Origin: a virus
Virus genome (UHGV): UHGV-0179428
DNA length: 64,000 nucleotides
Reading direction: 5' to 3' (one strand)
The notes beneath the pieces are model-generated. The model was not told the DNA's origin. It saw only the letters and a list, made by a program, of their open reading frames with translations, and did not search any database. Below, in pieces: positions 31,235 to 53,940 of this stretch (the first letter of the stretch is position 1; each line of letters starts with the position of its first letter). The translations under genes were made by a program, and so were the position numbers.

Positions 31235-31290
31235 GTTAAGTGAGAGCTTTTGTACTCTCACTTAAGTAATATATATCTGAAATTATTTTT
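31235..31290 (-). promoter_or_regulatory. promoter-like ATATATATTAC box plus conserved 5' hairpin (module c)
   Basis: Minus strand reads TTCAGATATATATTACTTAAGTGAGAG-TACAAAAG-CTCTCACTTAAC, then RBS and ATG at 31209. Confidence 0.4.
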
Positions 31291-31291
31291 A

Positions 31292-31573
31292 TTAAAAACC
31301 CGCAATAAAACTGCCTAGCGAGACACGCTGTAGGTATTTTGGCTTGCGAGCCAGGTAACAGTTCTTAGGATCACCTATTGCCATCTGCGCAACTGCACGT
31401 TCTAAACGCGGTGCTTCTAAGATGGCGCGATAGTTCCCTTCGTAATGCATTAACCACGCACATTCTTCAACGAAACGTTTTGCTTCTCGGTATTCTAATG
31501 TACGGATTAACTTCTTACCCCGGTACTGTTTTACATCACCGTTTTGACAAAATACAATAGTTTCACGCTTCAT
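31292..31573 (-). CDS. hypothetical protein (93 aa)
   Basis: ORF in operon context. Confidence 0.55.
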   Translation of the reverse strand: MKRETIVFCQNGDVKQYRGKKLIRTLEYREAKRFVEECAWLMHYEGNYRAILEAPRLERAVAQMAIGDPKNCYLARKPKYLQRVSLGSFIAGF

Positions 31574-31910
31574 TGATAATCTCCCAATTCGCTCTTATAA
31601 TCTCACGTTTACAGTCTTCAATATCTTTACGGTAAAACGACGTTTTTTCTTTTAATAGTTTTAATATCTCCTCTTTAGGCAATTTCCCCTCACAACCCAA
31701 TTCAGCAATAGCACAAACGAGAACAGTCAAATATTCTACTGAACCAGTTTTCGCACGGTATTCAGAGATAAGTTCTTGTTGTGTTTCAACTGTTTCTTCT
31801 AATAGCTTGATAAATTCTTCGTGCTTTGTGCACTCTTTGCATTTTCCGAAACCTAGCAATTTAAAAACCACTGTTACCTCCTCTGGCAATCCAGGTCGCC
31901 ACACGCACAT
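31563..31910 (-). CDS. hypothetical protein (115 aa)
   Basis: ORF in operon context. Confidence 0.55.
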   Translation of the reverse strand: MCVWRPGLPEEVTVVFKLLGFGKCKECTKHEEFIKLLEETVETQQELISEYRAKTGSVEYLTVLVCAIAELGCEGKLPKEEILKLLKEKTSFYRKDIEDCKREIIRANWEIINEA

Positions 31911-32172
31911 GGGCGTCCTGAAAGGATGAGATCAGTAAGATCACACCACCTAACGTACGAGGTACGCGTAAGGCTTCGAAACGTCGGCAGTAAGAGCGTA
32001 CGCAATACTCGGAACCTAAGATAGCGATTTCGCAGTATTCTGAACGAATAGGCAGTAGTTGAGAAACGAGTTTATCGCACGTTTCTTTGTTGTCTTCTAG
32101 TAACCCGCCACTGAGAATATAATTGACAATGTTCTCAGGTGCCGATGTGTTCGCGATTTTATTTTCCATCAT
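31861..32172 (-). CDS. hypothetical protein (about 103 aa)
   Basis: Start moved to ATG at 32172 (MMENK) after AGGAG; TAATG overlap with the upstream stop. Confidence 0.5.
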   Translation of the reverse strand: MMENKIANTSAPENIVNYILSGGLLEDNKETCDKLVSQLLPIRSEYCEIAILGSEYCVRSYCRRFEALRVPRTLGGVILLISSFQDAHVRVATWIARGGNSGF

Positions 32173-32570
32173 TAAACTCCTATTGTGATCTCCGTAATGT
32201 GCATTCTTCGCATCTCGCGGATCATTCTGTCCATTGCTCGTTGACACTCGAATAAATTGTCGTAGTATTTCTGGGCGGTAACATTGAATAAAACTCGACC
32301 ATCTTTCAATTGTTTAGCAGCGACTCTTATAGTTTCCGATTCAAACAACCGACCGCCACCCCTACCAACCTTAACCATAACGTCACGAATAGTAACGTTT
32401 ATAAGTTCACCGTTAGGGGAAGTCACAACCTCCGTATACCAGTCGCCTTCTTTAACGACATATTGTACCCTTTTACCGCACAGCCAGTTTTTAACTTTCT
32501 CGTTAACAAACAGTTGGGCTTTTAATGACAAACGCCTTTTTAAGTAAACTAAACGTATCATGTAAATCAC
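32172..32570 (-). CDS. hypothetical protein (132 aa)
   Basis: ORF in operon context. Confidence 0.6.
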   Translation of the reverse strand: MIYMIRLVYLKRRLSLKAQLFVNEKVKNWLCGKRVQYVVKEGDWYTEVVTSPNGELINVTIRDVMVKVGRGGGRLFESETIRVAAKQLKDGRVLFNVTAQKYYDNLFECQRAMDRMIREMRRMHITEITIGV

Positions 32571-32604
32571 CTTATCTCCCTCGGTATTCCCGAGGGAGAG
32601 ATAA

Positions 32605-32886
32605 TCACAGTTTCTCTTCTATTGTATCTAATCGAACTAGCGCATCGTGACTGACTTTACGTGCGTGTCCAATCGTACTACCTAAAGCTTTTGTTGTTGG
32701 GTCTAAGGTATTCAGACGGTGATACTGGTAATCGATATCTCGTATACAACGCGCCTGTTGTTTTACCATCCGAATTAATTGTCGTTTGGTTTGACGATTG
32801 TTACTAAGCTCCTGCCGTAATCGTGTGTTTTCTTTATAAAGCTCCTGTTGACGTGAGTTAATTAAACCCAACAACCAATCTAACAT
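32605..32886 (-). CDS. hypothetical coiled-coil protein (93 aa)
   Basis: ORF, Q/R/L-rich. Confidence 0.55.
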   Translation of the reverse strand: MLDWLLGLINSRQQELYKENTRLRQELSNNRQTKRQLIRMVKQQARCIRDIDYQYHRLNTLDPTTKALGSTIGHARKVSHDALVRLDTIEEKL

Positions 32887-32888
32887 TT

Positions 32889-33404
32889 TTACCCCCGGTG
32901 CAAGAAAATACGGTTAGTGTTTTCGAATTTCGGTTCTGTCCACTCCAGTTCCCAGTAAGCCTGGTTAATATCGCGAGACGTGAGTTTCAAATTCGAAACG
33001 CCGGGGATGTCGATCTGCTGCAGTAAATTAATAATCGTCACCAGCTCTTTACGAGGACGGTTCCAGATAACTTCAAGATATTCCTTTAGGCGTTCTGGGT
33101 AAGCGACAGGACGAATATAAACTAACCCAGAAGGATACTCAATTGCTGAGGGTGTTCTTGGCACTAACCAAACCCAGTCTTTTAATAGCGGTCCTGGGTG
33201 ATAGTTAGAGAGTTGAGTAAGCGCGTTTGCGACCGAACAACAACGGAAGTAGGTGATATCCCAATCGTGTTCATGGCAATTTCGCGCAACGATAACTTTT
33301 AAACGGTCAATAGGTTTACCGTCGATGGTCGTAACGCCAGGTTGATTCGCCAGAATCTGACGTTCACGTTTAGTATAAAGATTCATGTTAATATTTACTG
33401 ACAT
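32889..33404 (-). CDS. hypothetical protein (171 aa)
   Basis: RBS CCTAAAGGAG upstream. Confidence 0.65.
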   Translation of the reverse strand: MSVNINMNLYTKRERQILANQPGVTTIDGKPIDRLKVIVARNCHEHDWDITYFRCCSVANALTQLSNYHPGPLLKDWVWLVPRTPSAIEYPSGLVYIRPVAYPERLKEYLEVIWNRPRKELVTIINLLQQIDIPGVSNLKLTSRDINQAYWELEWTEPKFENTNRIFLHRG

Positions 33405-33447
33405 TTAATGCTCCTTTAGGTAAATGGTGGGGGTAGTTAATGCTTCG

Positions 33448-34275
33448 TTATTTAATATTCTGAATTTCTCTCATCTCGTTACAAAACTTATCAAACAGCT
33501 GGCCGTATACACACTCTCCAAAAAAGTGGTGTGCAAAGCGCTGTCTGATTTCCTTTTCGTATTTCTCGAGAACGTGTTTAAAAGATTCACTGTCTCTCTT
33601 AATTTTCTTCGCATGGGTTTCCAAAGTTTTAAGAAGTCGTGGTTCGTTTTTGATCAGGAGATGCAAGTCACCTTTAAGATATCTGCTTTGATAAATCATT
33701 ATTTTGGCGAGCTTGTGTTCACCTTTCACAACACTGATAAGCTCATCAGCACCGGCTTCTGTAATGTTTTCAACGGTAAATAGCAGAATATTTTCACCCT
33801 CTATATCTTTCAATAATTGATTTATACTAGCGCGATAAGCAGTATATTCATAGCTCACTTTAAGCATGTTGTCTTCAATCACATACGTGAATTTATCGCC
33901 GAAAAAATGGTATAGTATTGGTCCAATTTTATCTGCTTGTTTGGGGGTAAGTGGGAACTCCTTTGTGTAGTAAGCGACGTCTTTCGTAGTTGGCTTGTCC
34001 TTTAACCCACAAGTCGACTGTTCTGGTAATTCTGGATCTTTAGACACCTCAACAGACCGTACTAAAATATCCGTAATCGCACTAATGAGTTTGTTAGGAA
34101 AATCGACATCACCTTCTACCCAGAAAATGTTAAATGATTCCGATTTAACTTTATAGTAAAAGGTGTACGCTTTTTGTAGCTCAGCAATTTCCTTAATTTG
34201 TTCTTCAGTAGGGATAGGGGAGATCTTAAATCGGCTGATGACTTTTTCTTCTTCGGTGAGTTCGAACTGTAACAT
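33448..34275 (-). CDS. hypothetical protein (275 aa)
   Basis: Long ORF. Confidence 0.65.
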   Translation of the reverse strand: MLQFELTEEEKVISRFKISPIPTEEQIKEIAELQKAYTFYYKVKSESFNIFWVEGDVDFPNKLISAITDILVRSVEVSKDPELPEQSTCGLKDKPTTKDVAYYTKEFPLTPKQADKIGPILYHFFGDKFTYVIEDNMLKVSYEYTAYRASINQLLKDIEGENILLFTVENITEAGADELISVVKGEHKLAKIMIYQSRYLKGDLHLLIKNEPRLLKTLETHAKKIKRDSESFKHVLEKYEKEIRQRFAHHFFGECVYGQLFDKFCNEMREIQNIK

Positions 34276-34286
34276 GTTATAGTTCC

Positions 34287-34730
34287 TTAAATCATACCTG
34301 GGAATTCGAAATCGATTTTATCTAAAAGTTTGTAGTCTTCTTTTAGCTGAAGCATTAGCGTATTCTTAAACAGTTCAAGCGAACCGATAAAGTAAGCCGT
34401 ATAGCAGCTACCAAGAACAGAAGAGGAAAGACCCAAGTCTCTTAAACATTGTTTCAAGATTTCATGTTCTTCAGCGGTACCGAAAAGTTGGAAATTGATA
34501 ACGGTAATCTGTTTATTAATGATTGCCGATAACCATTCTTTAATTCTTCTCGTGGTTATACGTTCTTTGAAATCACTAGCTTCTGGCAACCAGGTAATGT
34601 GAACGAACGGTGCATCGTAATCCACGAGAACTTTCTGCTGCCAACGTACTTGCATCAAACCACGAATACGGTTTGCTAACGTTTCAGAATCACAAAGCAA
34701 CATAATGCCATTAGTAGTATTTGGTTTCAT
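34287..34730 (-). CDS. hypothetical protein (147 aa)
   Basis: ORF; 4-nt overlap with upstream gene. Confidence 0.6.
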   Translation of the reverse strand: MKPNTTNGIMLLCDSETLANRIRGLMQVRWQQKVLVDYDAPFVHITWLPEASDFKERITTRRIKEWLSAIINKQITVINFQLFGTAEEHEILKQCLRDLGLSSSVLGSCYTAYFIGSLELFKNTLMLQLKEDYKLLDKIDFEFPGMI

Positions 34731-35578
34731 AATTGCCCTTCCTTCTTAATGTAATCTTCAACCAACTTATCAAACACGATTTTTATCTTCTCGCGTTCTT
34801 TTTCACCCAATTCACCGGAACAGGTTAGTCCATTTATCTTTCCGTACCGTAATTCCAACACATATTTCAACCGATGACGTAAGGCTTGTTCAAAATGTGT
34901 CGGGATATAGATCGGTTCGAAGTTGTGCAATAAAGTAAAATTGTCTTCGGTGTGTTTAGGGGGTTCGAATTTTACTCTATCTAAGATAGTAAGCCAGCGT
35001 TGTCTGTCGACTAGCCGATCGTCCCAATAAACAGGTTTTGTTTTAGAGGGGGTAAGTGTATTGTAGTTACTGGAATCGGAGATACGGAAATTTGCTGTGA
35101 CGTAAGTCTTCGTGAGTAACGAGAGAAGACAAATCGTTCCTTCTTCGGAGTAACTTAAACCCTCGTCGAGTACGTCTTTAGCTTTCTTGAAGTAGTCTTC
35201 AATATAGTCTTCAGCAATTGGTTGAATCTCTACTTCTATAGCGCTAATTTGGGGCCCGTCTATCCGTAAAGGAAATTTTAGTTCAGCAATATATTGCCTA
35301 TCCGATGTATAAGCGCGTGTAATAATAGGGTAAGTAACAGGCTTAGCCAAATGACGATATTCACCAACCCTAATGACTGCGGAACGTCCAAAGTCACCTT
35401 TATTCGATTTTGAAAAACCGTAAAGGTCTTTTAGATACTCCAAATACTGGTCATCAGTCATTTCGTCGGTATTAAATTCACGAATGTAAAGTCGATTAAA
35501 AGATCCCTTTGTTTGTTCGTAGTAATAACCGGGGTCCCTATTTGCTAGAATGTGCGGGAGATAATACGGGTGATACAT
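34727..35578 (-). CDS. hypothetical protein (283 aa)
   Basis: RBS CCTAAAGGAGG; promoter-like box and hairpin upstream. Confidence 0.7.
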   Translation of the reverse strand: MYHPYYLPHILANRDPGYYYEQTKGSFNRLYIREFNTDEMTDDQYLEYLKDLYGFSKSNKGDFGRSAVIRVGEYRHLAKPVTYPIITRAYTSDRQYIAELKFPLRIDGPQISAIEVEIQPIAEDYIEDYFKKAKDVLDEGLSYSEEGTICLLSLLTKTYVTANFRISDSSNYNTLTPSKTKPVYWDDRLVDRQRWLTILDRVKFEPPKHTEDNFTLLHNFEPIYIPTHFEQALRHRLKYVLELRYGKINGLTCSGELGEKEREKIKIVFDKLVEDYIKKEGQL

Positions 35579-35605
35579 CTAATCCTCCTTTAGGCTATAA
35601 CTAAT

Positions 35606-35663
35606 GGAGTGAACGTAAATTTCACTCTCCCCTAGGTAATATATATCTGAGAAAAAATAAAAA
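35606..35663 (-). promoter_or_regulatory. promoter-like ATATATATTAC box plus conserved 5' hairpin (module a)
   Basis: Minus strand: T-run, TCAGATATATATTACCTAGGGGAGAG, hairpin GGAGAGTGAA-ATTTACG-TTCACTCC, RBS, ATG 35578; box nearly identical to the one at 53172-53197. Confidence 0.45.
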
Positions 35664-35697
35664 AGGTAGTAGGGGCTAAGCCCCTACTACCTAAAAA

Positions 35698-37441: not shown

Positions 37442-38224
37442 TTAAACACGTGAACCGTATATTGCACCTACTGCGTCCCATCTTGGCGCATTACCAGTAA
37501 CAGCTTTACCAGCTGCTCCGCCGTTATATTCTGTACCGTTACCTTGAGTATTACATCTTCCTCCAGCAGCACCGACATTACCACCCGAACCGCCTGTATA
37601 TGCACTAAGAGACCCCTCACCAACAGATCCTCTACCAGGAGCGGAAATAGTACCAGCAGCTGCACCGGAACTCATATGAGAGGAAGACCCACCAGCACCG
37701 AATGGGCGACCACCGCCACCACCAAATATTAGTCTACCCCTGTTACCGCCACCACCGCCGCCACCGCCTCCGGCAATAGCGCCACGGTTGGTTATACGCA
37801 GTCTGTTTCCTATTCCGTTCTGTATTGCGGTTCCACCTGCACCGCCTGGTGAGTTAGAACCGCCGTTGCCTCCTCTGCCGTATACTGTAACCCCAGGATT
37901 GATGATGAGGGTAATATACGAATTTGGAAGATTGCTAGGGAATTCTAAACAAGGAACCGTGCTACTATGGGACACTAAATCCCCCGTAATAGTCACAACG
38001 ACAGCAGTAGAGCCTAAAGAACGTAAATAGTTAATAAGCGTATCTTTATTGTAATTGTGATTAGCCCCGATCGAATACTGAACCTCTTTTGATTTTCCCG
38101 CCAATTGCGACATCCAGCCTGGAACCGGCACACCAAGTGTGCGCATCGCGCCAGACATCCATTCGTTACCAGCTTCAGCTTTTGCTGAAGAACCAATCCA
38201 ACCACCTACGCCGACAACTGCCAT
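37442..38224 (-). CDS. T-even gp38-like tail-fibre adhesin with glycine-rich motifs (260 aa)
   Basis: N-terminus MAVVGVGGWIGSSAKAEAGNEWMS and multiple poly-Gly blocks (GGGGGGGGG, FGGGGGRPFGAGG, AAGKAVTGNAPRWDAVGAIYGSRV), recalled from memory as gp38-like; immediately downstream of the tail-fibre gene. Confidence 0.7.
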   Translation of the reverse strand: MAVVGVGGWIGSSAKAEAGNEWMSGAMRTLGVPVPGWMSQLAGKSKEVQYSIGANHNYNKDTLINYLRSLGSTAVVVTITGDLVSHSSTVPCLEFPSNLPNSYITLIINPGVTVYGRGGNGGSNSPGGAGGTAIQNGIGNRLRITNRGAIAGGGGGGGGGNRGRLIFGGGGGRPFGAGGSSSHMSSGAAAGTISAPGRGSVGEGSLSAYTGGSGGNVGAAGGRCNTQGNGTEYNGGAAGKAVTGNAPRWDAVGAIYGSRV

Positions 38225-41200
38225 TAGGATCTTCCTTTAATTTCGTTAACCTCTTGACGCAACGCTTTCATACCCTCTACTAACAGCGCAATAACGCCAT
38301 TGTAGTTTAGACGTAAACGTTTTTCGCCTGAAATGGCATCATCATCCTCAGACACAAGTTCAGGTAACGCTTCTAATGCGTCCTGAGCAATTAGACCTAC
38401 AGAAGTCTGCCAGCCGTCATCAGGATGCTGAATTTCGTACAAATAACCGGTTAGTAACTCTAACCGATCCAAAGCTTTATCCAGCTTCACCAGATTACGT
38501 TTGTTACGACGGTCAGAACGAATCTGTACGTCGTTAAACGAACCGTTACCGTTGCCAGTAACGTTATGTCCAAAGTTTACTTGGCCGTTAGAATTATTAA
38601 AAGACAACGGGCGTAATCCGTTCCAGGAACCCGCTGCGGCTTGTCCGGCGTCGGTTACTAAGAAATAGGTATTGGCACCGTCGTTACGTAAAATAAAACC
38701 GTAGGTACCGTAAGCGATTCGAAAATCAGGGTATTTAGTGGCCAATTTACCGTTAACGGTTAAATCGCCGCCTATAGTACCGCCCCCCGAAGGTAGTGCA
38801 CCCACTTCTGCAGCAGTTGGCTTGTTTCTCGTATTGTAAGCACGACGCCAGCCTGGTGAGTATGTATCGCCGTTAAATACGTAGATAAACTCCGCATTAG
38901 TGAGTGCGCCACCGACGCTCGCCGTTGTGGCAGTCGTTATACGGATCGTGTAGTTGTTTGTGCTATTACCGTTACTAATCACTTCTATAACGGCCCCAGC
39001 TAACGGAATAACACCACAACCCGTCTCGCTGTGTGGTATGGACGCACTAGCGGCATAAGCCCATGCACAGCGAGCAACCCACGATCTTGTGGTAAATGCG
39101 CCGTTATTTTTCAATAACGTCACTAGCTGTGCTGTAGTTATTGCGCCGCCATCTTTGCCAGTTTCTAACCAACCACTAGGCGATGCCGGACAACCTATAT
39201 CGGCAGGTCCTAACGATATATTTCTAGTGCCGTCAAATGCGATACCGTTAATGGTTCTTGCGGTTTGCAACTTTGTTGCCGTGGCTGCGTTTCCGGTGGT
39301 CGCCTGATTACCTGTTTGGTTTACTCCAGGTAAACTGATGTCTTTAGTACCATCAAAAGCTACACCACCTATATTTCGCGCAGTCTGGAGCTTAGTCGCT
39401 GTCGCCGCATTCCCCGTAGTCGATTGGTTACCGGTTTGGTTTACGCCAGGAAGATTAACGTCTTTTGTCCCATCGAAAAGCACACCGCCGATCTTACGTG
39501 CGGTTTGTAACTTAGTAGCGGTCGCTGCATTACCTGTCGTATTCTGGTTGCCTTGCTGGTTAACGCCCGGTAAATTGATATCACCTGTACCGTCAAAGGT
39601 AACGCCTCCGATCCTGCGAGCGGTTTTCAGTTTCGTCGCGGTAGCGGCGTTGCCGGTAGTATCTTGATTACCGGTGGCATTTACGCCAGGAATGCTGTCA
39701 CGGGCAGTATAAACTTGTGCCCAATCTGACCACGGCGCATCAGCCGTATCACGTCGACTACGAATATAAACTGGCGCGTGCGCACCACTCGTCCCCGACC
39801 ATCCGATTAACAGCTCGCCTTCACCTAGCGCAGTAGAACCACCCAAATGCAATAAGTTACCATAAGCGGTTGGATAACCGTTATTGTAAACTTCGTACAT
39901 CTGAATACCGGGTGTACCTTTGTTTGATCCAGTCAGTGCAGTAACACGTCCACGTCCTACCAACGTGTTGATATTGATGTCTCTAGACCCATCAAATTTC
40001 ACACCGTTGATGTTTCGAGCCGTTTGTAATTTGGTTGCGGTTCCCGCGTTCCCAGAGGTGTTTTGATTACCCTGTTGGTTCACACCAGGGAGGCTAATGT
40101 CGCCGCTACCGTCGAAACTTACACCGCCGATTAAACGGGCTGTTTTCAGTTTTGTTGCCGTTGACGCATTACCTGTCAATTCGCCCGATAACCCTTTTGC
40201 AAAGGTCTGTTTTTCTGCCCACGTATGCGCTGCATTCAATACGGGCATCTGGCGGCTAGTAATAGTACGTTTACCCTTTTCACCAGCGACGCGAACAGCA
40301 AAGAAGCGATAGTTAGCAGTAGACACTGTACCACGCCAGACCAACATACTCCGGCCAGTACCGGTGTCCTCCGACGCCCCTACAAGAATAGTGACCAAGT
40401 TACCGTCGATAACACCCCAATCCATTCCCGCAGGAATGTTTTTCATGGTATTCAACGGTGTACTTATCATCTGGCCAGGAACGAAGTCGAATGTTTGCCA
40501 GTCTAACGGATCGACCTTAGCAGCAACCCCACCGATCCCTAAAGTCAGCGGGAGTGAATAGGATGTGAAAATCTCTCGCCATTCGCTCCAGGCGTTTCCT
40601 GTACGAATTCGTTGGAACTTGCGACCTTTCGAAGTTGCGCCTGTACCGTATGTGGTATAATTTTGTTCAACACCTGAACCGTCTAAGCGTAAGGTAACTT
40701 CGCAAACGCCTAGCAAGGTTGCGCCAGCAGAGTCTGTTAACGGACTGTCTGTAGCCTCACCGGTAACACTAAAGCGACCTGGTTTAGTTAAGTCGTTAAA
40801 GCTACCCTTATAGTAGGCACCGTCTACCTGATACCCAACCTGAATCCAATCTTCCCACTGCGGATTAGACGAATCCCAAGTCGCAGTCAAACCACGGACA
40901 TACATCGTACCATGTCGTGTGGTGTATCGTTGCAACCGTCCGTAAAGACCACCTTCCATGACTTCTAATACGCCTTGCGCATTACCGCCCTCTTCAGGAT
41001 AATGTCTGTCGAACACCGCTAACGAACTGGACGAGTTACGCCAGTTACCCATGTGCTCAGCGCCGCCTAAGGAGTTCAGATCGATCGATGTAGATAACGG
41101 GCGTACACCGGTAGTTACCATTCTCCACGGTGACCACGGGCCATTAGTTCCGTTCCACGCACCTGACAACATACGGTTGTACACGTTACCATTACGGCAG

Positions 41201-42666
41201 GTAAAACGTTGCGCTCCACTGTAGTTGCCCGCTTTATACACTTCCAGATAACCGACTGCACCGTCTTCTGGGAAGTGTTTTGCCATCGACGCATTGGTTG
41301 ATGTCGACTTGGACCATGTTCCTGTGTAATTAGCATCTGGAGCAAATGTGTTAATATCAGCATCTACAGGCATTTCGCCACGGAAACGCAGATAGGTATC
41401 AGGAGATAGGCCGATATTGCGAGCAAAGGTTTCTTTATTGGGGATATCGGCACCGTTAGAATTTTTCTGTAATGCGCCGTTTGCTTTATCAACGGTGGGT
41501 TTCAAACCCAGGAAGTTAATGATATCCGCAGTTGACCCTTTCGCTAACAAGGATCTGGCAGTTTCTGTAAAATCGGTTAACTCGACTTTATTAGAGCCCG
41601 TGAAATACAGGAGTTTGTTTGCTGCACTTGTAACCGCAGCGATTGCGGTGAGTAACGGACTGAGAGGTTGTTTCTGAGCAAGCTCCTCAGTGATCGTTGT
41701 TGCGAAGTTAGGGTCATTACCTAACGCCTCTGCTAATTCCGCTAAGGTATTTAACGTCTCGGGTGAGGAACCAACCAATTCAGCAATCGCGTCACGCACC
41801 CAGGACGTTGTGGAGATGCTCGTGTCATTCGAGTCCTTCGGCGGTTTTGGTGTTGTCGGTTTACCCGTAAAATTCGGCGAATGTTTATTGGCTTTTAACT
41901 GTAATTCGTCGTTCAGCTGTTTAACAGTGGACGGCGTGGCAGCCTCCGTCACGGATTCGCTAGTCAGGGTATCGTTAAGTTTAACAATACCTTTACCGGT
42001 TGTAGTAGCGTCAACTAAGCCTTGGGCGGCGATTTTCTCCGCACGTAGGGCAGCTGACTCCGAACGCGTAGCTGCCCCTTCTGAGCTTTCTTTATCTTTC
42101 GCGACCTGTGCAGCAATCTTCTCCACTGCACCTTTACTGGCCTCAACTGAAGCCGCAGTATTTTCAACGCTGGTAGCCGCCTGTTGAACTTGTCCGGCCT
42201 GTTGCGTAACCGTTTCTGCTTTCTTAGTTACATCAGCCGCCGTAGCCGTCACAGATTGTTCGGATGTGGCGACAGCTTGAGCCTTCTCATTTACTGATTG
42301 TGAAACAGTATCTACGGCAGTTTTCGCTGCTAAAACCTCAGCGTGTTTTTTGTTAACCTCCGCAGTTTTAGTGGCAACGGTTCCCGCTTGCTCATTAACT
42401 GTGGAAGCTAACGTGTCAGTTTGTTGCTTCGCGGTTTCCGCTAAATTTTTTGCTTGCGCAGCTTCTGTTGCAGACTGTTGTGATTTGGCCGCAGCCGTTT
42501 GTGCATCAGCAACCGCGTTTCTGACGGTGTCAATGTCCGCAACGATTTCGCGGACGGGTAACTTATAATCTTTTTCGTCTTTCGAAAAAAGTAAAACGCC
42601 TTCGCCGATATCCCCGGTGTATGGACGCAAATCGTGTAAACGAATTTTCTTTACCGCTTTAGCCAT
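38224..42666 (-). CDS. long tail-fibre protein (about 1480 aa) with C-terminal intramolecular chaperone (peptidase S74-like) domain
   Basis: Start taken as ATG 42666 (MAKAVKKIRLHDL); about seven 37-aa repeats GNQ.TTGNAATATKLQTAR.IGGV.FDGT.DI.LPGVNQ; C-terminal segment SDRRNKRNLVKLDKALDRLELLTGYLYE...GLIAQDALEALPELV typical of self-cleaving chaperone domains. Confidence 0.85.
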   Translation of the reverse strand: MAKAVKKIRLHDLRPYTGDIGEGVLLFSKDEKDYKLPVREIVADIDTVRNAVADAQTAAAKSQQSATEAAQAKNLAETAKQQTDTLASTVNEQAGTVATKTAEVNKKHAEVLAAKTAVDTVSQSVNEKAQAVATSEQSVTATAADVTKKAETVTQQAGQVQQAATSVENTAASVEASKGAVEKIAAQVAKDKESSEGAATRSESAALRAEKIAAQGLVDATTTGKGIVKLNDTLTSESVTEAATPSTVKQLNDELQLKANKHSPNFTGKPTTPKPPKDSNDTSISTTSWVRDAIAELVGSSPETLNTLAELAEALGNDPNFATTITEELAQKQPLSPLLTAIAAVTSAANKLLYFTGSNKVELTDFTETARSLLAKGSTADIINFLGLKPTVDKANGALQKNSNGADIPNKETFARNIGLSPDTYLRFRGEMPVDADINTFAPDANYTGTWSKSTSTNASMAKHFPEDGAVGYLEVYKAGNYSGAQRFTCRNGNVYNRMLSGAWNGTNGPWSPWRMVTTGVRPLSTSIDLNSLGGAEHMGNWRNSSSSLAVFDRHYPEEGGNAQGVLEVMEGGLYGRLQRYTTRHGTMYVRGLTATWDSSNPQWEDWIQVGYQVDGAYYKGSFNDLTKPGRFSVTGEATDSPLTDSAGATLLGVCEVTLRLDGSGVEQNYTTYGTGATSKGRKFQRIRTGNAWSEWREIFTSYSLPLTLGIGGVAAKVDPLDWQTFDFVPGQMISTPLNTMKNIPAGMDWGVIDGNLVTILVGASEDTGTGRSMLVWRGTVSTANYRFFAVRVAGEKGKRTITSRQMPVLNAAHTWAEKQTFAKGLSGELTGNASTATKLKTARLIGGVSFDGSGDISLPGVNQQGNQNTSGNAGTATKLQTARNINGVKFDGSRDININTLVGRGRVTALTGSNKGTPGIQMYEVYNNGYPTAYGNLLHLGGSTALGEGELLIGWSGTSGAHAPVYIRSRRDTADAPWSDWAQVYTARDSIPGVNATGNQDTTGNAATATKLKTARRIGGVTFDGTGDINLPGVNQQGNQNTTGNAATATKLQTARKIGGVLFDGTKDVNLPGVNQTGNQSTTGNAATATKLQTARNIGGVAFDGTKDISLPGVNQTGNQATTGNAATATKLQTARTINGIAFDGTRNISLGPADIGCPASPSGWLETGKDGGAITTAQLVTLLKNNGAFTTRSWVARCAWAYAASASIPHSETGCGVIPLAGAVIEVISNGNSTNNYTIRITTATTASVGGALTNAEFIYVFNGDTYSPGWRRAYNTRNKPTAAEVGALPSGGGTIGGDLTVNGKLATKYPDFRIAYGTYGFILRNDGANTYFLVTDAGQAAAGSWNGLRPLSFNNSNGQVNFGHNVTGNGNGSFNDVQIRSDRRNKRNLVKLDKALDRLELLTGYLYEIQHPDDGWQTSVGLIAQDALEALPELVSEDDDAISGEKRLRLNYNGVIALLVEGMKALRQEVNEIKGRS
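39230..39700 (-). repeat. tandem about 108-111 bp coding repeats inside the tail-fibre gene
   Basis: Visible DNA-level periodicity corresponding to the 37-aa TATKLQTAR repeats; a second shorter block lies near 40010-40230. Confidence 0.55.
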
Positions 42667-42864
42667 GATATTTAATTCTCTATCTGGAGCTAAAAGATCT
42701 GGGAAGGTAAAACACCCCCCCAACATTTTTATAAGCGGACTATTATACTGGTTTTAATCCATCATCTTCTAACGTGAAAGTGATGTCCAATTCCGCGTTC
42801 TCATGATCTGGGTTTACTAAGTCTTGATAAAAGTTTGTTTTGGCCTCCGTTACCGGTAAAACCG

Positions 42865-46453: not shown

Positions 46454-46498
46454 TTTCTTTTCTCCTAATCATTAAAATAGTCACAGTTGTAAAAAAGA

Positions 46499-47556: not shown

Positions 47557-47563
47557 GCACTGC

Positions 47564-47833
47564 TTAAATCTTACGACTGCTACCGTAGCAGCCACAACCT
47601 GCTGTCGTTTTCGCAGCACTGGCCGGTGCTAACGCAACCATCGTGCCGTCGTCCTTAACAATCTGCAAGTTACCTGCGCGAATCAGACCTTTAAAGGTAA
47701 TCTTCACACCCTTACGTAAACTCTTCACATTGAAGCCGTCGAGTTTGAGTGTTTTAACTTTTTCAGGTTTACCTTCTTCGTAATAGGAAAGAACATTACC
47801 TGCACGTTTTTCAACAATATAAATCTTACCCAT
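47564..47833 (-). CDS. hypothetical small protein (89 aa)
   Basis: Promoter-like box and hairpin upstream, terminator downstream; lysine-rich with C-terminal CGCYG. Confidence 0.6.
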   Translation of the reverse strand: MGKIYIVEKRAGNVLSYYEEGKPEKVKTLKLDGFNVKSLRKGVKITFKGLIRAGNLQIVKDDGTMVALAPASAAKTTAGCGCYGSSRKI

Positions 47834-47856: not shown

Positions 47857-47897
47857 GTGAGAACTCTCACATAGATGAAATATATCTTAAATTTTTT
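47857..47897 (-). promoter_or_regulatory. promoter-like AAGATATATTTC box plus conserved hairpin GTGAGAG..CTCACTTAAC (module d)
   Basis: Minus strand: AAGATATATTTCATCTATGTGAGAGTTCTCACTTAACTAAATGGAG...ATG 47833. Confidence 0.4.
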
Positions 47898-47906
47898 AGA
47901 CAATTA

Positions 47907-48215
47907 TCAGTATAGCGCGATGTTAACCGACTTACCAGGTAGCGGGAAATGCTGTAGTTCTATTGACCGAAGTTTCCTGTCAATCGTCAGTATTTCATCA
48001 ACGTTGGGCGTAAGACGGAATACAGCGCGCGGTAGCGTGAAAGGCACGTTCGTCGAGCAGTTGTTTAACAGTAACTGATCCTGAGAATAGTCAATTTCTA
48101 CCACCCTCGCAATTACCCAACGTTCGTGAATCTCACCGCCTAGCGGTGCGGCGAGTGCCCGTTGCAAGCGCTGTGAATTCGTTTCGTTGGTATTAGTGTG
48201 GTTTTGGTTCGACAT
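47907..48215 (-). CDS. hypothetical protein (about 102 aa)
   Basis: Track start at 48245 is TTG; ATG at 48215 (MSNQNH) reduces the overlap with the upstream gene. Confidence 0.5.
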   Translation of the reverse strand: MSNQNHTNTNETNSQRLQRALAAPLGGEIHERWVIARVVEIDYSQDQLLLNNCSTNVPFTLPRAVFRLTPNVDEILTIDRKLRSIELQHFPLPGKSVNIALY

Positions 48216-48620: not shown

Positions 48621-48625
48621 AAGGT

Positions 48626-49132: not shown

Positions 49133-49170
49133 CTCTAAGTCTCCAGTTAAGAGGTCATATTACCTGCTGG

Positions 49171-49398: not shown

Positions 49399-49407
49399 TC
49401 AATGTCC

Positions 49408-50181
49408 TTAAAAGATAAAATGGCCAGTTAATGCTTCTACCTCAACACCAGACATTGCTGGAGGTGCTGAGTATGGAAAAGTAAGACGCACGGTTGCACC
49501 CTTTAAATACGCAATACGGTAGTATGTGGTCAAGAGCGCAATCCCGTAAGTACAGTCGTTATAAAAGAAACCTTCGGTTGCAAACGTCTTTTCGTTGATT
49601 TTCGAATAGACTAAGATACCTTCAACTTTACCGTCTTTACGACAGCACAGCCCTTCAGCAGCCCCAATAGCTAACAATCCCAGGCAGTATGTATCTAAAC
49701 TGACATTAACCACCTTAGGGATCGTAAACGTTTCTTCTAACGTTAGAGATTCAATATCATCGACATCAGGTAAATCGGTACGAACCTCAGGTTTTTCAGT
49801 AAACGTCAGCTCATAGTCGATAGAGGTCGGTTGCATACTCAAGAACGCCATTAACTGATCGCGACGTTTTAGGTCGTTGGCAGGGTAAGTGATATCAAAC
49901 ACCTCCACATTTAACAACCGTTTGAGTTGTGCGAAATTGATGTTCTTCTTCGCAAACACAACGATTGCTGACATGTAGAAAATCTTACCGTCAGTGCGAC
50001 CGGAGAAGATTCCTTGCAGCTGATTCGTGTTCGAAAGAATGATAAAGGTCGGATCTTCAGATTCGCGAATGACGTCCTTTTCCAGTAACCCTTTCCGTAC
50101 ACGGGTTAGCGAAACCATTTTGCCATCCACACCAATTGCTAAATGGTCATTACGATAATCGTGGATATCCACTATGCGCAT
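49408..50181 (-). CDS. hypothetical protein (257 aa)
   Basis: ORF; start overlaps the dam stop region. Confidence 0.65.
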   Translation of the reverse strand: MRIVDIHDYRNDHLAIGVDGKMVSLTRVRKGLLEKDVIRESEDPTFIILSNTNQLQGIFSGRTDGKIFYMSAIVVFAKKNINFAQLKRLLNVEVFDITYPANDLKRRDQLMAFLSMQPTSIDYELTFTEKPEVRTDLPDVDDIESLTLEETFTIPKVVNVSLDTYCLGLLAIGAAEGLCCRKDGKVEGILVYSKINEKTFATEGFFYNDCTYGIALLTTYYRIAYLKGATVRLTFPYSAPPAMSGVEVEALTGHFIF

Positions 50182-50996
50182 TAGAGCACTCCCAGTAATT
50201 CAGTCACCGTTTTCCGAGCGGCACCAGACGCACCCATATAGCGACCGACCTCAATACTCCGCCACTCAAAACCGTAATAAATTTCGCGGGTGAGTAGGGT
50301 GTCTGCATTTGACAGCACGACGCTGTTGCCACGTTCCACCTGCTGCTGTAGTAACTTGGCTAATTCACGATGATCCGTTTGTGAGAATTCTTTACGGTGG
50401 TATTGTGCATGTTTCGCGGTATCCGAAAGCGGAATATAAGGAGGATCAGCATAAATCACGGCATCTTCAGGTGTCCGTGCTAATACAGAGCGAAAGTCCT
50501 CACAAACAATTTCCAGATACTCAACTTCTGCGCAACGTTTAGCCCAATCCCGAATTTCTTCTAATGGATAATAAACACCGTTCGGGTAACGTCCAAACGG
50601 AACATTGAACCCACCACTACTGTTATAGCGACACATCCCGTTATAGCCGTGACGCATTAAGTATAAAAACATTGCGGCACGTTCAACTTCGGTCATCGTT
50701 TTACCGCTATTAAACAGTTCACGACGTTCCATATACTTTACAGTGGTATTACCGTCTAAGAACAACGGTTGCGACGCAGCAATCAGTTCTTCAGGCTGTT
50801 CACGCGCAACACAAAGTAAGCGTATCAAATCAGGGTTAGAATCCGATAGAATATACCGGCTGTAATTCGTATTTAGGAAAACAGACCCTGCGCCCACAAA
50901 CGGTTCTACAAAGGTTGTACGTTTAGGTAAGACCTTTTGTAATTCACCCAAAACGCGTGTTTTCCCACCCATCCATTTAATTATCGGTTTCCGCAT
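50181..50996 (-). CDS. dam: DNA adenine methyltransferase (Dam family, GATC-type)
   Basis: Close motif-by-motif resemblance to E. coli Dam: VEPFVGAGSVFLNT, FLYL.R.GYNG.CRYN, FNVPFGRY, catalytic DPPY, LSN.DT.LTRE. Confidence 0.9.
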   Translation of the reverse strand: MRKPIIKWMGGKTRVLGELQKVLPKRTTFVEPFVGAGSVFLNTNYSRYILSDSNPDLIRLLCVAREQPEELIAASQPLFLDGNTTVKYMERRELFNSGKTMTEVERAAMFLYLMRHGYNGMCRYNSSGGFNVPFGRYPNGVYYPLEEIRDWAKRCAEVEYLEIVCEDFRSVLARTPEDAVIYADPPYIPLSDTAKHAQYHRKEFSQTDHRELAKLLQQQVERGNSVVLSNADTLLTREIYYGFEWRSIEVGRYMGASGAARKTVTELLGVL

Positions 50997-51975
50997 TATA
51001 TCCGCCTTGTAACGATGACATTTCGTCGCCTAACACCAACTCGACTCGATTTTTCCGACGCTCCCAACTGACAACATCGTCGTCACGCACTAAAACAAAT
51101 TCGTATTCGTAGGGGCGAAATTTAAATAATTCGACGGCCAGGTGCCTGAATGCAGGGTTGTTATTGAAACACCCTATCTCTAATGGTGCCGCTGTTGTCG
51201 ATGCAATCTGTAGAGCGCGATACAACAAAGTCCGTCCGATACCACGACCCCGATGTGTCTCACTTACCGCAATGGCTTTTAATTCACACTCGTTAAAATT
51301 ACGCAACTTAACTTGCACCACACCCACAACATCGTTGCCATCCATCCAAACGTAAGTGTGGTGGTTGACGTGGCGTACTAACTCCACCAACGTTTCGACT
51401 TGTGGCATGATTTGACGTGAGCGACTTACAGGGTCAGCGTTGATGTTTTCAACGACACTCGTACCCAAAAGCAACATAAGCTGTTCACGTTGTGCAGCGG
51501 TTAGCTCTTTATAAAAATCGCCGGAAATGTTCTTCACGTTTGTTGGTAGAGCGATATCCAATAACGAGCGTGTACCTAAACGATACGTAGTGTGGGTGTG
51601 TCTAAATCCTAAGTCATTAAGCTCAGCGATTTCTTCTACACCACTGGCGATTCGATTAAGATACGTAAAACCGGTATAGTCGAGTACCAGTAGCAGGTTC
51701 AGTTTGTTCAAACAACCCGGTACAATTTCATGCATATACAAACAGTGTAACGTTGGGTCGCCGTAAATGTGTTTTGTGATGATAAACCCTTGAATTGTTT
51801 TTCCTTTTTGTAAAGAGAACGTATTCAGCTCACTATTGCACAACGCCTCACGAATCACAGCACCGTTAGGGCCCGATAAACACGCCTGAAGTTGAGGATT
51901 GCGAATATCTCTACGTGCTAACCGACCTACTGTTAAATCCGTGGCGGTGCGTTCTATAGTCTTCCTAAAAGCCAT
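50977..51975 (-). CDS. protein with C-terminal GNAT acetyltransferase domain (332 aa)
   Basis: C-terminal ELKAIAVSETHRGRGIGRTLLYRAL (GNAT motif A R..G.G); N-terminal roughly 200 aa unassigned. Confidence 0.6.
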   Translation of the reverse strand: MAFRKTIERTATDLTVGRLARRDIRNPQLQACLSGPNGAVIREALCNSELNTFSLQKGKTIQGFIITKHIYGDPTLHCLYMHEIVPGCLNKLNLLLVLDYTGFTYLNRIASGVEEIAELNDLGFRHTHTTYRLGTRSLLDIALPTNVKNISGDFYKELTAAQREQLMLLLGTSVVENINADPVSRSRQIMPQVETLVELVRHVNHHTYVWMDGNDVVGVVQVKLRNFNECELKAIAVSETHRGRGIGRTLLYRALQIASTTAAPLEIGCFNNNPAFRHLAVELFKFRPYEYEFVLVRDDDVVSWERRKNRVELVLGDEMSSLQGGYNAETDN

Positions 51976-52023
51976 GTTAATTACTCCTTAAAAGGTCGTC
52001 TCAAAACAATACGCTAAAGTTGT

Positions 52024-52058
52024 AAAAACAAAAAAAGAAAGGGGAACCGAAGTTCCCC
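52024..52058 (-). terminator. rho-independent terminator downstream of gene 52071-52742
   Basis: Hairpin GGGGAAC-CGAA-GTTCCCC with a T-run on the minus strand. Confidence 0.6.
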
Positions 52059-52070
52059 AATTATTAAACA

Positions 52071-52742
52071 TCATGCAGAAGGGGCAGAGTTTGTAAAAGC
52101 AAGATTGGGTGTCAAGCCAGCTTTCCCTAATTTTTCATACAGGTAATTGAAAAATCTGAGATGGGCGTCGTAGTGGCCAGCCGCTACTCGCTGGCCGTAA
52201 ACTTCTACCAAGTCAGGCGAAAACTTAATATGGCAGTTTTGTCTAGAGAACAAAGGTTGTTGCACCCCGCCCTTAATTAAGATGCGATACTTTTTACCGT
52301 CGTCTGTTACGGCGTGAAGAATATTTGTACTGAAATGGAAATAGATAGAAGGGTTAAAACACAACCAGGTGGCGGCATTGATTAGTAAGTCAGCTAACTT
52401 AACAGCGATTTTGTCAAGTTCAGGCCCTTCAAACTTATGCATTAACCTCAGAAGAATTTCAGTAATAACCGTACCTGTAAGTAATTTGTCTCTATTAAGA
52501 CCAGGTGCAACCGCCAAAACATCACCATTATGAGTGCAGACAAGTGTGAATAGGTTGAAAGGCTGGTCTTGATAAAGTTCGAAAACCAGGTCAGTATACG
52601 GGCTAAAAGTTAAGAATTTCACCCCGAGTATTTCATTAACGCAGGGTAAAAGTTCAACCTTCGCAGCATGTTGAATTTCGTTGGCTTTAGTCTCGTTCTT
52701 TACAGTTTCTTCAATTACGGTTTTACCAATTTTCGGTGGCAT
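52071..52742 (-). CDS. hypothetical protein (223 aa)
   Basis: ORF. Confidence 0.6.
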   Translation of the reverse strand: MPPKIGKTVIEETVKNETKANEIQHAAKVELLPCVNEILGVKFLTFSPYTDLVFELYQDQPFNLFTLVCTHNGDVLAVAPGLNRDKLLTGTVITEILLRLMHKFEGPELDKIAVKLADLLINAATWLCFNPSIYFHFSTNILHAVTDDGKKYRILIKGGVQQPLFSRQNCHIKFSPDLVEVYGQRVAAGHYDAHLRFFNYLYEKLGKAGLTPNLAFTNSAPSA

Positions 52743-52763
52743 GATAATACTCCTTCAGGTTGA

Positions 52764-53123
52764 TTAGTGCGTTGCGGTGTTAGTGATAAAACGCACATTC
52801 TTCGTGGTGCGTTTAACGGACGTGTTTGCAACGTAGTCCAACGCGGACTCTACGTGAACGGTTACTGAGCAACGACCCTTAACGGAATTAAAACTAATCT
52901 GATATTTCAGACGAATCGCATCAGCAACTTTCATCATAATCGGTAAACTTAAACGTTCTACGCGGTCGTTCTTAATAGATGAGATAACGGGTTGTGAAAC
53001 TTTCGCAAGCTGGGCAAGCTCACGCTGGGTAATGTCTTTCGTGGTCAAATGACGAATTACGTAAGACAAGTGAAGACCGAATTTACGTTTTGCCAGAACG
53101 ATGGAATTGTGATTGTAAGCCAT
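52764..53123 (-). CDS. helix-turn-helix DNA-binding protein (119 aa), putative transcriptional regulator
   Basis: ITQRELAQLAKVSQPVISSIKN is a classic HTH segment; RBS CCTAAAGGAG. Confidence 0.5.
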   Translation of the reverse strand: MAYNHNSIVLAKRKFGLHLSYVIRHLTTKDITQRELAQLAKVSQPVISSIKNDRVERLSLPIMMKVADAIRLKYQISFNSVKGRCSVTVHVESALDYVANTSVKRTTKNVRFITNTATH

Positions 53124-53157
53124 GGTAATACTCCTTTAGGTTAAACGGTCGGTGTAA

Positions 53158-53210
53158 AGAGTTAATTGTAACTCTCCCCTAGGTAATATATATCTGAGAA
53201 AAAATAAAAT
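53158..53210 (-). promoter_or_regulatory. promoter-like ATATATATTAC box plus 5' hairpin (module b)
   Basis: Minus strand: T-run, TCAGATATATATTACCTAGGGGAGAG, hairpin AGAGTTA-CAAT-TAACTCT, RBS, ATG 53123. Confidence 0.45.
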
Positions 53211-53242
53211 ATAGGTACCACCGTTGGGTGGTACCTAAGCGG

Positions 53243-53866
53243 TTAGTTCGCTAAAATGTGCGTAACAATCTCTGCGGCTTTCAAACGGTAATCGTCATTC
53301 TGAGTTACCGGTAATAACGCGTGAAGACAACCGCCTTCTGTTAAGATGTGGTGTGCGAAACGATAATGGTCGCGTAAGCCATCCCAACATTGGTTGTCCT
53401 TTAGATACTTAACAGTAAGTACCTCGTCATCCCAATTCTTACCTTGTTCTTCTACACGTTTCTTAAATCGTGCTAACGCTGTTGGGTAATCAACATCTGT
53501 CCAAACATAAAGGTCAGGCGTGTGGAAATGACGAGTTAGTTTACGTTGGAAAACCACGTCCTTACCATCTGTCCCCTGATAAACAATCGTTGAAGGACAG
53601 AAGCGATCGAAAATAACGACATCGTATTCATCAACAACATGGTCCAACGTGTGAAGGAAATCATCACACATTGCTTCGGCAATTTTTGTTTTCGAAGCAG
53701 ACTGTACAACCAAGCTACGTGCACGAATGCCCGCCTCAGTTTCAGACGTCGGATGGTTCCGAATACAAACTTTTAATCCTGCGGACTCCAACATCGCTTT
53801 TACCATTTTACACAACGTTGATTTCCCAGAAAAATCAGGGCCATCAATAGACACTGTCTTAAGCAT
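53243..53866 (-). CDS. tmk: thymidylate (dTMP) kinase-like nucleotide kinase
   Basis: P-loop GPDFSGKST and FDRFCPSTIVYQG (DR(Y/F)..S...YQG motif). Confidence 0.65.
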   Translation of the reverse strand: MLKTVSIDGPDFSGKSTLCKMVKAMLESAGLKVCIRNHPTSETEAGIRARSLVVQSASKTKIAEAMCDDFLHTLDHVVDEYDVVIFDRFCPSTIVYQGTDGKDVVFQRKLTRHFHTPDLYVWTDVDYPTALARFKKRVEEQGKNWDDEVLTVKYLKDNQCWDGLRDHYRFAHHILTEGGCLHALLPVTQNDDYRLKAAEIVTHILAN

Positions 53867-53890
53867 TATTGTTTTACCTTTTTACGCACG

Positions 53891-53940
53891 TTAAGTGAAA
53901 CCTCTCACAATGAGAGTAACAGTTGTAATAATTTACAATA
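53891..53940 (-). promoter_or_regulatory. promoter-like AATTATTAC box plus conserved hairpin GTGAGAGG..CACTTAAC (module e)
   Basis: Minus strand: TAAATTATTACAACTGTTACTCTCATTGTGAGAGGTTTCACTTAACG then RBS AAAAAGG and ATG 53866. Confidence 0.35.

Follow-up and report, generated by a model that had tools for sequence, protein, structure and literature searches.

In every jumbo phage that encodes its own RNA polymerase (RNAP) and has been examined, the early promoter of the virion RNAP (vRNAP) is an AT-rich box of ~10 nt centred near -10 (PMC7598289). The published consensus sequences are TATATTAC for phiKZ, TTAWTAVAA..TTTRARR.BTATATTACDWHDGTG (ending ...TATATTACDWHDGTG) for 201phi2-1, and TTTCARRYAKATATTATYWAAGTGWA for OBP and N1M2 (PMC7058600 table 2). 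The AR9 consensus is AAATATATATTAT-(6N)-G+1, and phiKZ and phiR1-37 transcripts likewise start 6 nt past the box (PMC5312081). Further upstream, T/A-rich conserved positions at about -20 and -30 are known in phiKZ and 201phi2-1 (PMC8244752, PMC11512511). Salmonella phage SPN3US belongs to the phiKZ family and carries vRNAP subunits in its virion (PMC5312081), and both SPN3US and Erwinia phage Asesino form a phage nucleus (PMC13282480). Here we analyse a 64,000-nt stretch of virus genome UHGV-0179428 (hereinafter the window), in which a promoter-like box followed by an inverted repeat recurs upstream of minus-strand genes; all of the box sites lie on the minus strand. Gene order and sequence comparison indicate that the source is an undescribed jumbo phage of the enterobacterial group, syntenic with Asesino and SPN3US. 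Four of the boxes are very probably phiKZ-type early promoters. Comparison across the Asesino/SPN3US group further shows that one class of box is coupled to a hairpin at the predicted transcription start.

Probable early promoters in the window

The 13-mer AGATATATATTAC occurs exactly three times in the window (31278-31266, 35648-35636 and 53195-53183, minus strand), with 0.00 copies expected from dinucleotide-preserving shuffles. All copies are intergenic, none falls in a coding region, and each sits 5' of a minus-strand gene, on the coding strand. The original prediction listed five intergenic box sites, designated here sites 1 to 5. Sites 1, 2 and 4 carry the exact box, site 3 carries a variant, and site 5 has neither a matrix score (see below) nor a consensus box. 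Specifically, ATATATTAC is present without change at sites 1, 2 and 4, the corresponding sequence at site 3 is TATATTTC/TTTCAT, and site 5 fails to match. Searches with TATATTAC at up to one mismatch and with the 13-mer at up to three mismatches were at chance level in the window, so only the long motif is informative. Sites 1, 2 and 4 are united by a 47-nt repeat family (family D2 of the repeat finder), across which sites 2 and 4 are 94% identical; the 26 identical nucleotides first noticed at these two sites are part of a longer run of 39.

Sites 1-4 are intergenic and co-oriented with the downstream gene, whose start codon lies 35-53 nt downstream, and an inverted repeat and a Shine-Dalgarno (SD) sequence follow the box at each of them, in the order first described. 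The features are listed below, with the box classes (A and B) that are defined in a later section; HTH stands for helix-turn-helix and UTR for untranslated region.

31257-31305, minus strand: site 1, predicted class A early promoter; A/T-rich upstream element, box AGATATATATTAC at 31278-31266, spacer TTAAGT at 31265-31260, predicted +1 G at 31259
31242-31259, minus strand: site 1 stem-loop GAGAGU-ACAAAA-GCUCUC, predicted 5'-terminal; RNAfold -8.8 kcal/mol, z = -2.5
30715-31209, minus strand: gene heading the site 1 transcription unit, encoding 164 aa without family match; 5' UTR of 50 nt, SD TAGGAG at 31223-31218
35627-35675, minus strand: site 2, predicted class A early promoter; box at 35648-35636, spacer CTAGGG, predicted +1 G at 35629
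35607-35627, minus strand: site 2 stem-loop GAGUGAA-AUUUACG-UUCACUC, beginning at +3; followed by SD AAGGAGG and the ATG at 35578 of a 283-aa protein without family match
47866-47914, minus strand: site 3, predicted variant, class B-like promoter; box AGATATATTTCAT at 47887-47875, spacer CTATGT, predicted +1 G at 47868
47857-47870, minus strand: site 3 inverted repeat GTGAGAGTTCTCAC; followed by CACTTAAC, SD GGAG and the ATG at 47833 of an 89-aa protein (phrog_12339)
53174-53222, minus strand: site 4, predicted class A early promoter; box at 53195-53183, spacer CTAGGG, predicted +1 G at 53176
53157-53176, minus strand: site 4 stem-loop GAGAGUUA-CAAU-UAACUCUU, predicted 5'-terminal, upstream of the gene of an HTH DNA-binding protein (52764-53123)

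Scanning IMG/VR for exact copies of TCAGATATATATTAC gave 120 loci, ~42 of which are in contigs of 205-246 kb, one of these being SPN3US itself. A class A position weight matrix (PWM) was built from 40 sites in jumbo-phage contigs. Its consensus, TTGATTAAAAATAATTTCAG..., has information content at T/A-rich positions around -20 and -30. In the 64-kb window, the matrix finds exactly four sites, namely site 1 (63.6 bits), site 4 (46.4 bits), site 2 (36.6 bits) and site 3 (14.8 bits); the next best window score is -0.1 and the best score in shuffled sequence is -0.25. Site 3, whose box has three mismatches to AGATATATATTAC, scores higher with the class B matrix (26.4 bits, best shuffle 15.7).

A G stands 7 nt past TTAC in 36 of the 39 non-redundant sites from contigs of at least 200 kb; it is preceded by T and followed by A in 37/39 each. 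The T-G step at positions 6-7 after the box is present at 4/4 window sites and, in the first 100 kb of phiKZ, at 10/10 canonical boxes. From this register we infer that transcription starts at 31259, 35629, 47868 and 53176, with an uncertainty of ~2 nt. An alternative register at site 3, TATATTTC-6N-G, would place +1 at 47870.

Conservation at related loci is consistent with these assignments. The site 1 promoter is orthologous to an Asesino promoter upstream of gp152 with a predicted transcription start site (TSS) at 117136, and orthologues of the site 4 box stand 5' of the HTH gene in Asesino (predicted TSS 96817) and SPN3US (predicted TSS 94258). Site 3 is unchanged in four related contigs in spite of diverging upstream flanks, and for this reason we take it for a conserved variant, not a decayed copy. 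The contig loci L126-L129, aligned to window positions 47870-47857, have at the site 3 repeat the perfect 14-nt palindrome GTGAGAATTCTCAC, with GAATTC inside it, and their whole leader is invariant.

Comparison with described promoters

Sites 1, 2 and 4 have an AT-rich box of ~10 nt with the core TATATTAC/TATATTAT near -10. In the window sequence TTTCAGATATATATTAC-CTAG-GTG, the core TATATTAC and its spacing to GTG equal those of the published consensus sequences. Like the phiKZ-like vRNAP early promoters, the window promoters have an identical AT-rich core, an equal distance to GTG and to the predicted +1 G, and a T/A-rich region upstream; they are intergenic, co-oriented with genes and often placed right after terminators, and they belong to a lineage that encodes split beta/beta' polymerases (PMC7058600, PMC5312081, PMC8244752). 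They differ in the longer conserved block of the window group (TTTCAGATATATATTACYTAGGTGAG). Site 1 (TTTCAGATATATATTACTTAAGTGAGA) fits 24 of the 26 consensus positions of the OBP/N1M2 promoter, including TTTCA upstream and AAGTG downstream. However, the OBP/N1M2 motif is a bioinformatic prediction only, and the canonical boxes of the window end in TTAC and not in TTAT; its ...ATATTAT ending is shared instead with the class B boxes AGATAGATATTAT of Asesino and SPN3US. The late promoter of T4, TATAAATA (gp55), is likewise a short AT-rich phage-specific box, but it is not enriched in the window (2 copies vs 3.3 expected, neither at a box site), in line with the original prediction, which did not see this consensus.

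Thus the first suggestion of a phage promoter class holds for four of the five sites, which fit the phiKZ-like early consensus (PMC7058600 table 2; PMC5312081; PMC7598289), and is strengthened by synteny and by the orthologous boxes of the HTH gene. Sites 1, 2 and 4 and the variant site 3 are, with little doubt, phiKZ-type early promoters, and sequence comparison shows both their membership of the motif family and their conservation at orthologous genes; the polymerase involved and the early timing are inferred. The promoter class itself is already known, the window providing a new member from an undescribed phage. No promoter sequences of the SPN3US group were found in the literature searched.

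A hairpin at the predicted transcription start

The mean minimum free energy (MFE) of positions +1 to +32 in the 39 jumbo-contig sites is -5.9 kcal/mol, compared with -3.0 kcal/mol at 60 sites with the same 15-mer in unrelated contigs (p = 6e-6) and -2.2 kcal/mol at positions +65 to +96 of the same 39 loci (p = 5e-6). The first paired nucleotide falls at +1 to +3 of the predicted transcript in 32/39 sites, and at +1 in all eight Asesino class A sites; the hairpin has a mean length of 21 nt. In a search for helices, one was found in 33/37 sites, most frequently beginning exactly at the predicted +1 (13/33).

The stems are complementary yet divergent among sites, as in GAGAGUUA/UAACUCUU, GAGAUUAC/GUAAUCUC, GAUAGA/UCUAUC, GAAUGAC/GUUAUUC and GAGCAUUGA/UCAAUGCUU. 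Orthologues of the HTH-gene promoter from the window, two related contigs, Asesino and SPN3US present four versions of the stem-loop, with compensatory changes in the stem GAGAUUAC/GUAAUCUC. When 12 hairpins were placed in a 20-nt register, 95.8% of cells were paired, a fraction inflated by the selection of these hairpins for folding, vs 80.5% in shuffles (0/500 reached the observed value) and 38-52% with the partner slid. Three of the eight pairs are changed on both sides, a count that the selection does not inflate, and the covariation score is 0.379 vs 0.099 in shuffled sets. These compensatory changes, together with the folding controls, bear out the structured 5' UTR that was originally suggested.

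Folding is stronger for the sense strand (-6.1) than for the antisense strand (-4.8; p = 1.5e-4), and 22 of the 259 pairs are G.U. The strand bias and the G.U pairs argue for a structure of RNA or of the non-template strand rather than for a duplex palindrome. Sequence comparison shows that the hairpin and its strand bias are real, and selection appears to act on the structure rather than on the sequence. No Rfam covariance model matched at gathering threshold anywhere in the window.

The sequence of the hairpin is less uniform than first described. The pattern GTGAGAG...CTCTCAC, which had been assigned to three sites, is exact at site 1 alone; site 3 has GTGAGAGTTCTCAC and site 5 has the arms in reversed order. 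Common to these three sites is CACTTAAC, which stands directly after the inverted repeat on the minus strand (31242-31235, 47859-47852 and 53897-53890). Many related leaders have UUAAC or UUUAC at the corresponding point. CACTTAAC may resemble UUAACUUUA, the translational enhancer of the T7 gene 10 leader. A ribosome-binding context, CCTAAAGGAGTATTACCATG, recurs near-verbatim 5' of several genes (33406-33424, 35580-35598, 52740-52763 and 53121-53144).

Two classes of box

Genome-wide PWM scans of Asesino (NC_031107) and SPN3US (NC_027402) with class A and class B matrices gave hits on the main coding strand, without exception in Asesino (24 hits) and with one exception in SPN3US. The two classes are as follows.

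Class A box: TCAGATATAT(A/T)TTAC-YTAGGT-G; 8 sites in Asesino and 7 in SPN3US
Class A downstream genes: mostly small genes of unassigned function, plus the HTH gene; 5' UTR of ~50-60 nt
Class B box: AGATAGATATTAT-CTTGGT-G; 13 sites in Asesino and 12 in SPN3US
Class B downstream genes: among them a 618-aa gene and one for an RNA polymerase beta subunit; 5' UTR of ~25-35 nt
Class B predicted TSS in Asesino: 8029, 16356, 16448, 24575, 29814, 74000, 74919, 94449, 101978, 111675, 186047, 195753, 242461
Class B predicted TSS in SPN3US: 15633, 23829, 25245, 28988, 72505, 72703, 92559, 100834, 109912, 174973, 184063, 191621

A hairpin near +1 (MFE of -3.5 kcal/mol or lower) is predicted at 15/15 class A sites vs 4/25 class B sites (Fisher p = 1e-7), and the MFE values of the two classes differ accordingly (Mann-Whitney p = 7e-6). 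The difference in leader length between the classes is about the length of the hairpin (~20 nt). Of the window sites, 1, 2 and 4 belong to class A. The class B box is similar to the OBP/N1M2 consensus.

In phiKZ only 2/10 sites have such a hairpin, and a hairpin general to phiKZ-like phages was rejected on this count. Since TTAC boxes of phiKZ are mostly without a stem-loop at the predicted +1, the coupling belongs to the enterobacterial group and not to the polymerase family. Genome comparison shows the coupling of the +1 hairpin to the TTAC class within the Asesino/SPN3US group. The literature searched gave no account of a +1 hairpin or of its coupling to a promoter, with a mention possible in the phiKZ paper of Ceyssens 2014. 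The coupling of TTAC box and +1 hairpin is a modest finding and apparently a new one.

Proposed role of the hairpin

The element as a whole is probably best explained as a vRNAP early promoter combined with a 5'-terminal stabilising hairpin. The previous transcription unit would be closed by an intrinsic terminator (hairpin and TTTTATTTTT tail) or by the end of the upstream gene. An A/T-rich stretch at about -45 to -20 would follow, and the near-invariant TTTCAGATATATATTAC and the spacer YTAGGT would position the polymerase, most likely the phage's own multisubunit vRNAP, a virion component that enters the cell along with the DNA. Transcription would start at the G 7 nt past TTAC (T at -1, G at +1, A at +2). 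At class A promoters the first ~21 nt of RNA would fold into an A/U-rich stem-loop of 5-9 bp, beginning no more than 2 nt from the 5' end, with an unstructured leader behind it and a strong SD ~25-30 nt further on. The hairpin may then mask the 5'-triphosphate so that neither RppH nor the RNase E 5'-end sensor can reach it, and the hidden 5' end would give the first accessory mRNAs a longer life after injection.

The original prediction offered three functions for the hairpin: RNase processing site, translational operator and stabiliser. The last fits best because the stem begins at the predicted +1. RNase III processing is unlikely because the stems have only 5-9 bp, and a translational operator is unlikely because the SD sequences are not sequestered by the folds. 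Both RppH and RNase E require an unpaired 5' terminus, and this accounts for the long-known stabilisation of mRNA by 5' secondary structure (PMC3997798), and a protective 5' hairpin is thus the most economical reading. This need is also the known mechanism of the 5' stem-loop stabilisers in the E. coli ompA and papA leaders (PMC3997798). Compared with these stabilisers, the window stems are weaker and A/U-rich, their stabilising role is predicted only, and the element is tied to one promoter class of a non-host polymerase and not to single genes. The leader of phage T7 gene 10 is another 5'-terminal stem-loop that stabilises mRNA. The assignment of the hairpin as a 5'-terminal mRNA stabiliser is tentative, with a chance somewhat below even.

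Several observations weigh against this explanation. The complementarity reaches 1-6 nt upstream of the predicted +1 in 13/33 helices. At site 1 there are perfect 11-bp arms, TTAAGTGAGAG/CTCTCACTTAA (31265-31236, minus strand), which begin 6 nt upstream of the predicted +1, and the site 3 stem requires transcription of the GU at -2/-1 to fold. The arm extension of site 1 is retained by Asesino in slightly altered form, and two unrelated promoters extend theirs through G.T pairs (L083 near 3751 and L015 near 10230). A purely 5'-terminal RNA hairpin does not account for such extended complementarity, which possibly reflects a start 2 nt further upstream in part of the promoters, a function in read-through RNA or one at the DNA level. 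The stems are weak (-3 to -10 kcal/mol). The phiKZ promoters, with their TTAC box, lack a hairpin at 8/10 sites and the class B boxes before core genes are mostly hairpin-free, which indicates that neither the polymerase nor early mRNAs as a whole depend on the hairpin. Duplication links several of the copies, and the counts given above are thus not fully independent. Finally, the searched literature reports no transcript start, timing or polymerase dependence for any phage of the SPN3US group.

The box provides an annotation rule for early transcription units in this phage and its relatives, namely box, 6 nt, G at +1. In the SPN3US/Asesino group, one promoter flavour is predicted always to give a base-paired mRNA 5' end and the second is not, which is testable. 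If the hairpin stabilises, it would amount to a cis-acting protection of the first phage messages before any phage-encoded countermeasure, and to a compact promoter-plus-leader part for engineering.

Alternative explanations

The repeat could act on DNA rather than on RNA. In this case an A/T-rich repeat at the start site, extruded or melted in the injected genome, would help the sigma-less vRNAP to open or escape at class A promoters. The repeat overlaps the predicted start, and the upstream extension in 13/33 helices, with the 11-bp arms of site 1, is in accord with such a role. The hairpin also goes with one box variant (15/15 vs 4/25), as if it were part of the promoter. Precedents are the virion polymerase of N4, which needs a DNA hairpin (PMC4496689), and the non-virion polymerase of AR9, which reads single-stranded promoter DNA (PMC7598289). 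The N4 system resembles the window in its virion-delivered polymerase, its early genes and an inverted repeat in the promoter region. However, the N4 polymerase is single-subunit, and its hairpin is GC-rich, on the template strand, centred at -11, not downstream of the start, and formed with gyrase and single-stranded DNA-binding protein (PMC4496689). The window repeat is at +1 to +21, A/U-rich and favoured on the sense strand, and an N4-type hairpin promoter was rejected on these grounds. In addition, the helix most often starts exactly at the predicted +1, the sense-strand bias and the 22 G.U pairs are hard to square with a symmetric cruciform or with an N4-like hairpin on the template strand, and phiKZ promoters have the same TTAC box mostly without a repeat. 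A function at the DNA level is unlikely; if real, it would bear on how the sigma-less virion polymerase initiates.

A two-tier early programme is also unlikely, and slightly more so. Here, class A promoters (with hairpin) would serve small accessory genes and class B promoters (no hairpin, shorter leader) core genes in the SPN3US/Asesino group, the hairpin being more than a generic stabiliser, namely a sorting mark on one subset of vRNAP transcripts. Such a mark could concern how these transcripts are handled at the early infection vesicle or extruded from it (10.1101/2023.09.20.558163), differential decay, or a timed switch read by a phage protein.

An operator is improbable. The repeat would bind a dimeric phage regulator that silences class A promoters after the early phase, the candidate being the HTH protein encoded downstream of site 4. 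Palindromic arms that overlap the start site occupy the classical position of a repressor, the 5' arm shows fair conservation (GAGAG/GAGAU), in the window as well as in Asesino and SPN3US the HTH gene is itself under class A control, and the site 3 orthologues have the perfect 14-nt palindrome. But the arms vary too much among sites in sequence and length (5-9 bp), as do the spacers (3-12 nt), for one protein to recognise them all, the conserved half GTGAGA belongs also to the promoter/start consensus, and G.U pairs and strand asymmetry point to a single-strand fold.

An attenuator is at least as improbable. The hairpin and a U-rich stretch would form a promoter-proximal terminator or pause, releasing very short RNAs unless an antiterminator is present. 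Premature termination in the 5' UTR is frequent in phiKZ and 201phi2-1 (PMC10914365, PMC11512511), UUUU or UUUAC follows several hairpins (e.g. AACUCUUUUAC), and the T content just past the stem is 46% vs 33% in the background. Yet three or more T in the 4 nt after the stem occur at just 22% of sites, an enrichment so weak that a terminator-like U-tract was rejected; the stems are A/U-rich, in contrast to the GC-rich terminators of the phage itself, and a 22-nt product would mean termination almost at promoter escape.

Host sigma-70 promoters with TATATT as -10 element, the downstream repeats being incidental remnants of duplicated promoter cassettes, are hardly credible: the box does include TATATT, there is one weak match at site 1 (TTAATA-16-TATATT, 9/12), and the 39 identical nucleotides of sites 2 and 4 indicate recent duplication, but no -35 element is conserved, conservation extends over ~30 nt, including TCAGATA, the final C and YTAGGTGA, which is not a sigma-70 pattern, sigma-70-like sites in the window are at chance level (32 vs 31.8 and 20 vs 21.6 expected), the development of phiKZ-type phages is independent of the host polymerase (PMC13282480, PMC10914365), and the compensatory stem changes rule out duplication debris in its pure form.

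Terminators and site 5

The T-run first described ahead of the box belongs, at sites 2, 4 and 5, mainly to the tail of an intrinsic terminator directly upstream.

35664-35692, minus strand: intrinsic terminator adjoining site 2 upstream; 13-bp stem, then TTTTTTATTTT, the source of the site 2 T-run
53212-53237, minus strand: intrinsic terminator adjoining site 4 upstream; 11-bp stem, then TATTTTATTT
53973-53954, minus strand: intrinsic terminator directly upstream of site 5
53891-53940, minus strand: site 5, outside the promoter family; TTATTACAACTGTTAC, then the inverted repeat CTCTCA-TTG-TGAGAG at 53916-53902, then CACTTAAC

The transcription unit of site 4, consisting of the HTH gene and a 223-aa gene, is closed by a further terminator (52058-52041). 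The terminators of the phage have a common tail, TTTT(A)TTTTT (35692-35651, 53237-53201, 52058-52031, 60564-60529 and 48621-48586), reminiscent of the TTAT-containing terminator motif reported in phiKZ (PMC10914365).

Site 5 is located 5' of the thymidylate kinase gene (53243-53866) and 3' of its terminator. A degenerate member of the box family was ruled out here, with no hit by either PWM and no conservation in L123, L125 or Asesino. Site 5 shares TTACAACTGTKAC with the region of 46495 and belongs to a distinct motif, TTTTTACAAYT, which recurs intergenically on the minus strand (46485-46495, 52018-52028, 53921-53931 and 60518-60528), mostly directly after terminators, with a similar sequence near 57745. 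This motif could be another promoter class or a piece of terminator tail; as a conserved promoter class it was dropped, since it recurs in the window and not in Asesino.

Phage affiliation and genome context

The window shares gene order and PHROG families with Asesino, specifically the HTH protein, thymidylate kinase, a DNA methyltransferase, an internal head protein and virion proteins, and SPN3US also matches. At the DNA level, ~1.7 kb of the window is 73% identical to Asesino, and close matches are otherwise almost nil. The closest sequence found is the uncultivated IMG/VR contig IMGVR_UViG_3300045988_113438 (220,786 bp), whose loci L028, L104 and L122 show 92-100% matches to window sites. 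Asesino and SPN3US are ~240 kb each and each has at least seven genes annotated 'RNA polymerase beta subunit'; among the annotated open reading frames (ORFs) of the window no polymerase gene was identified.

A T4-like origin was considered and dropped: megablast of the region matched just a gp38-like tail-fibre piece, and the synteny is with Asesino and SPN3US. The likeness to T-even phages is confined to tail-fibre segments. The tail-fibre module (minus strand, 37442-38224 and 38224-42726) is mosaic. Its adhesin-like gene has ~77-82% DNA identity to gp38-type genes of RB49/JSE-like T-even phages, and its 1500-aa fibre (ORF 38224-42726) matches the S protein of P1/P7 and long fibre proteins of T4-like phages. 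The mosaic suggests horizontal exchange and an Escherichia-like host. Within the 1500-aa ORF, at 39260-40176, there are six copies of a 38-nt segment, mostly 120 nt (40 codons) apart. Elsewhere in the window, two adjacent radical SAM genes (phrog_1802; 18440-20669, plus strand) are syntenic with Asesino gp180-gp181 and with SPN3US ACQ60_gp102 and ACQ60_gp103.

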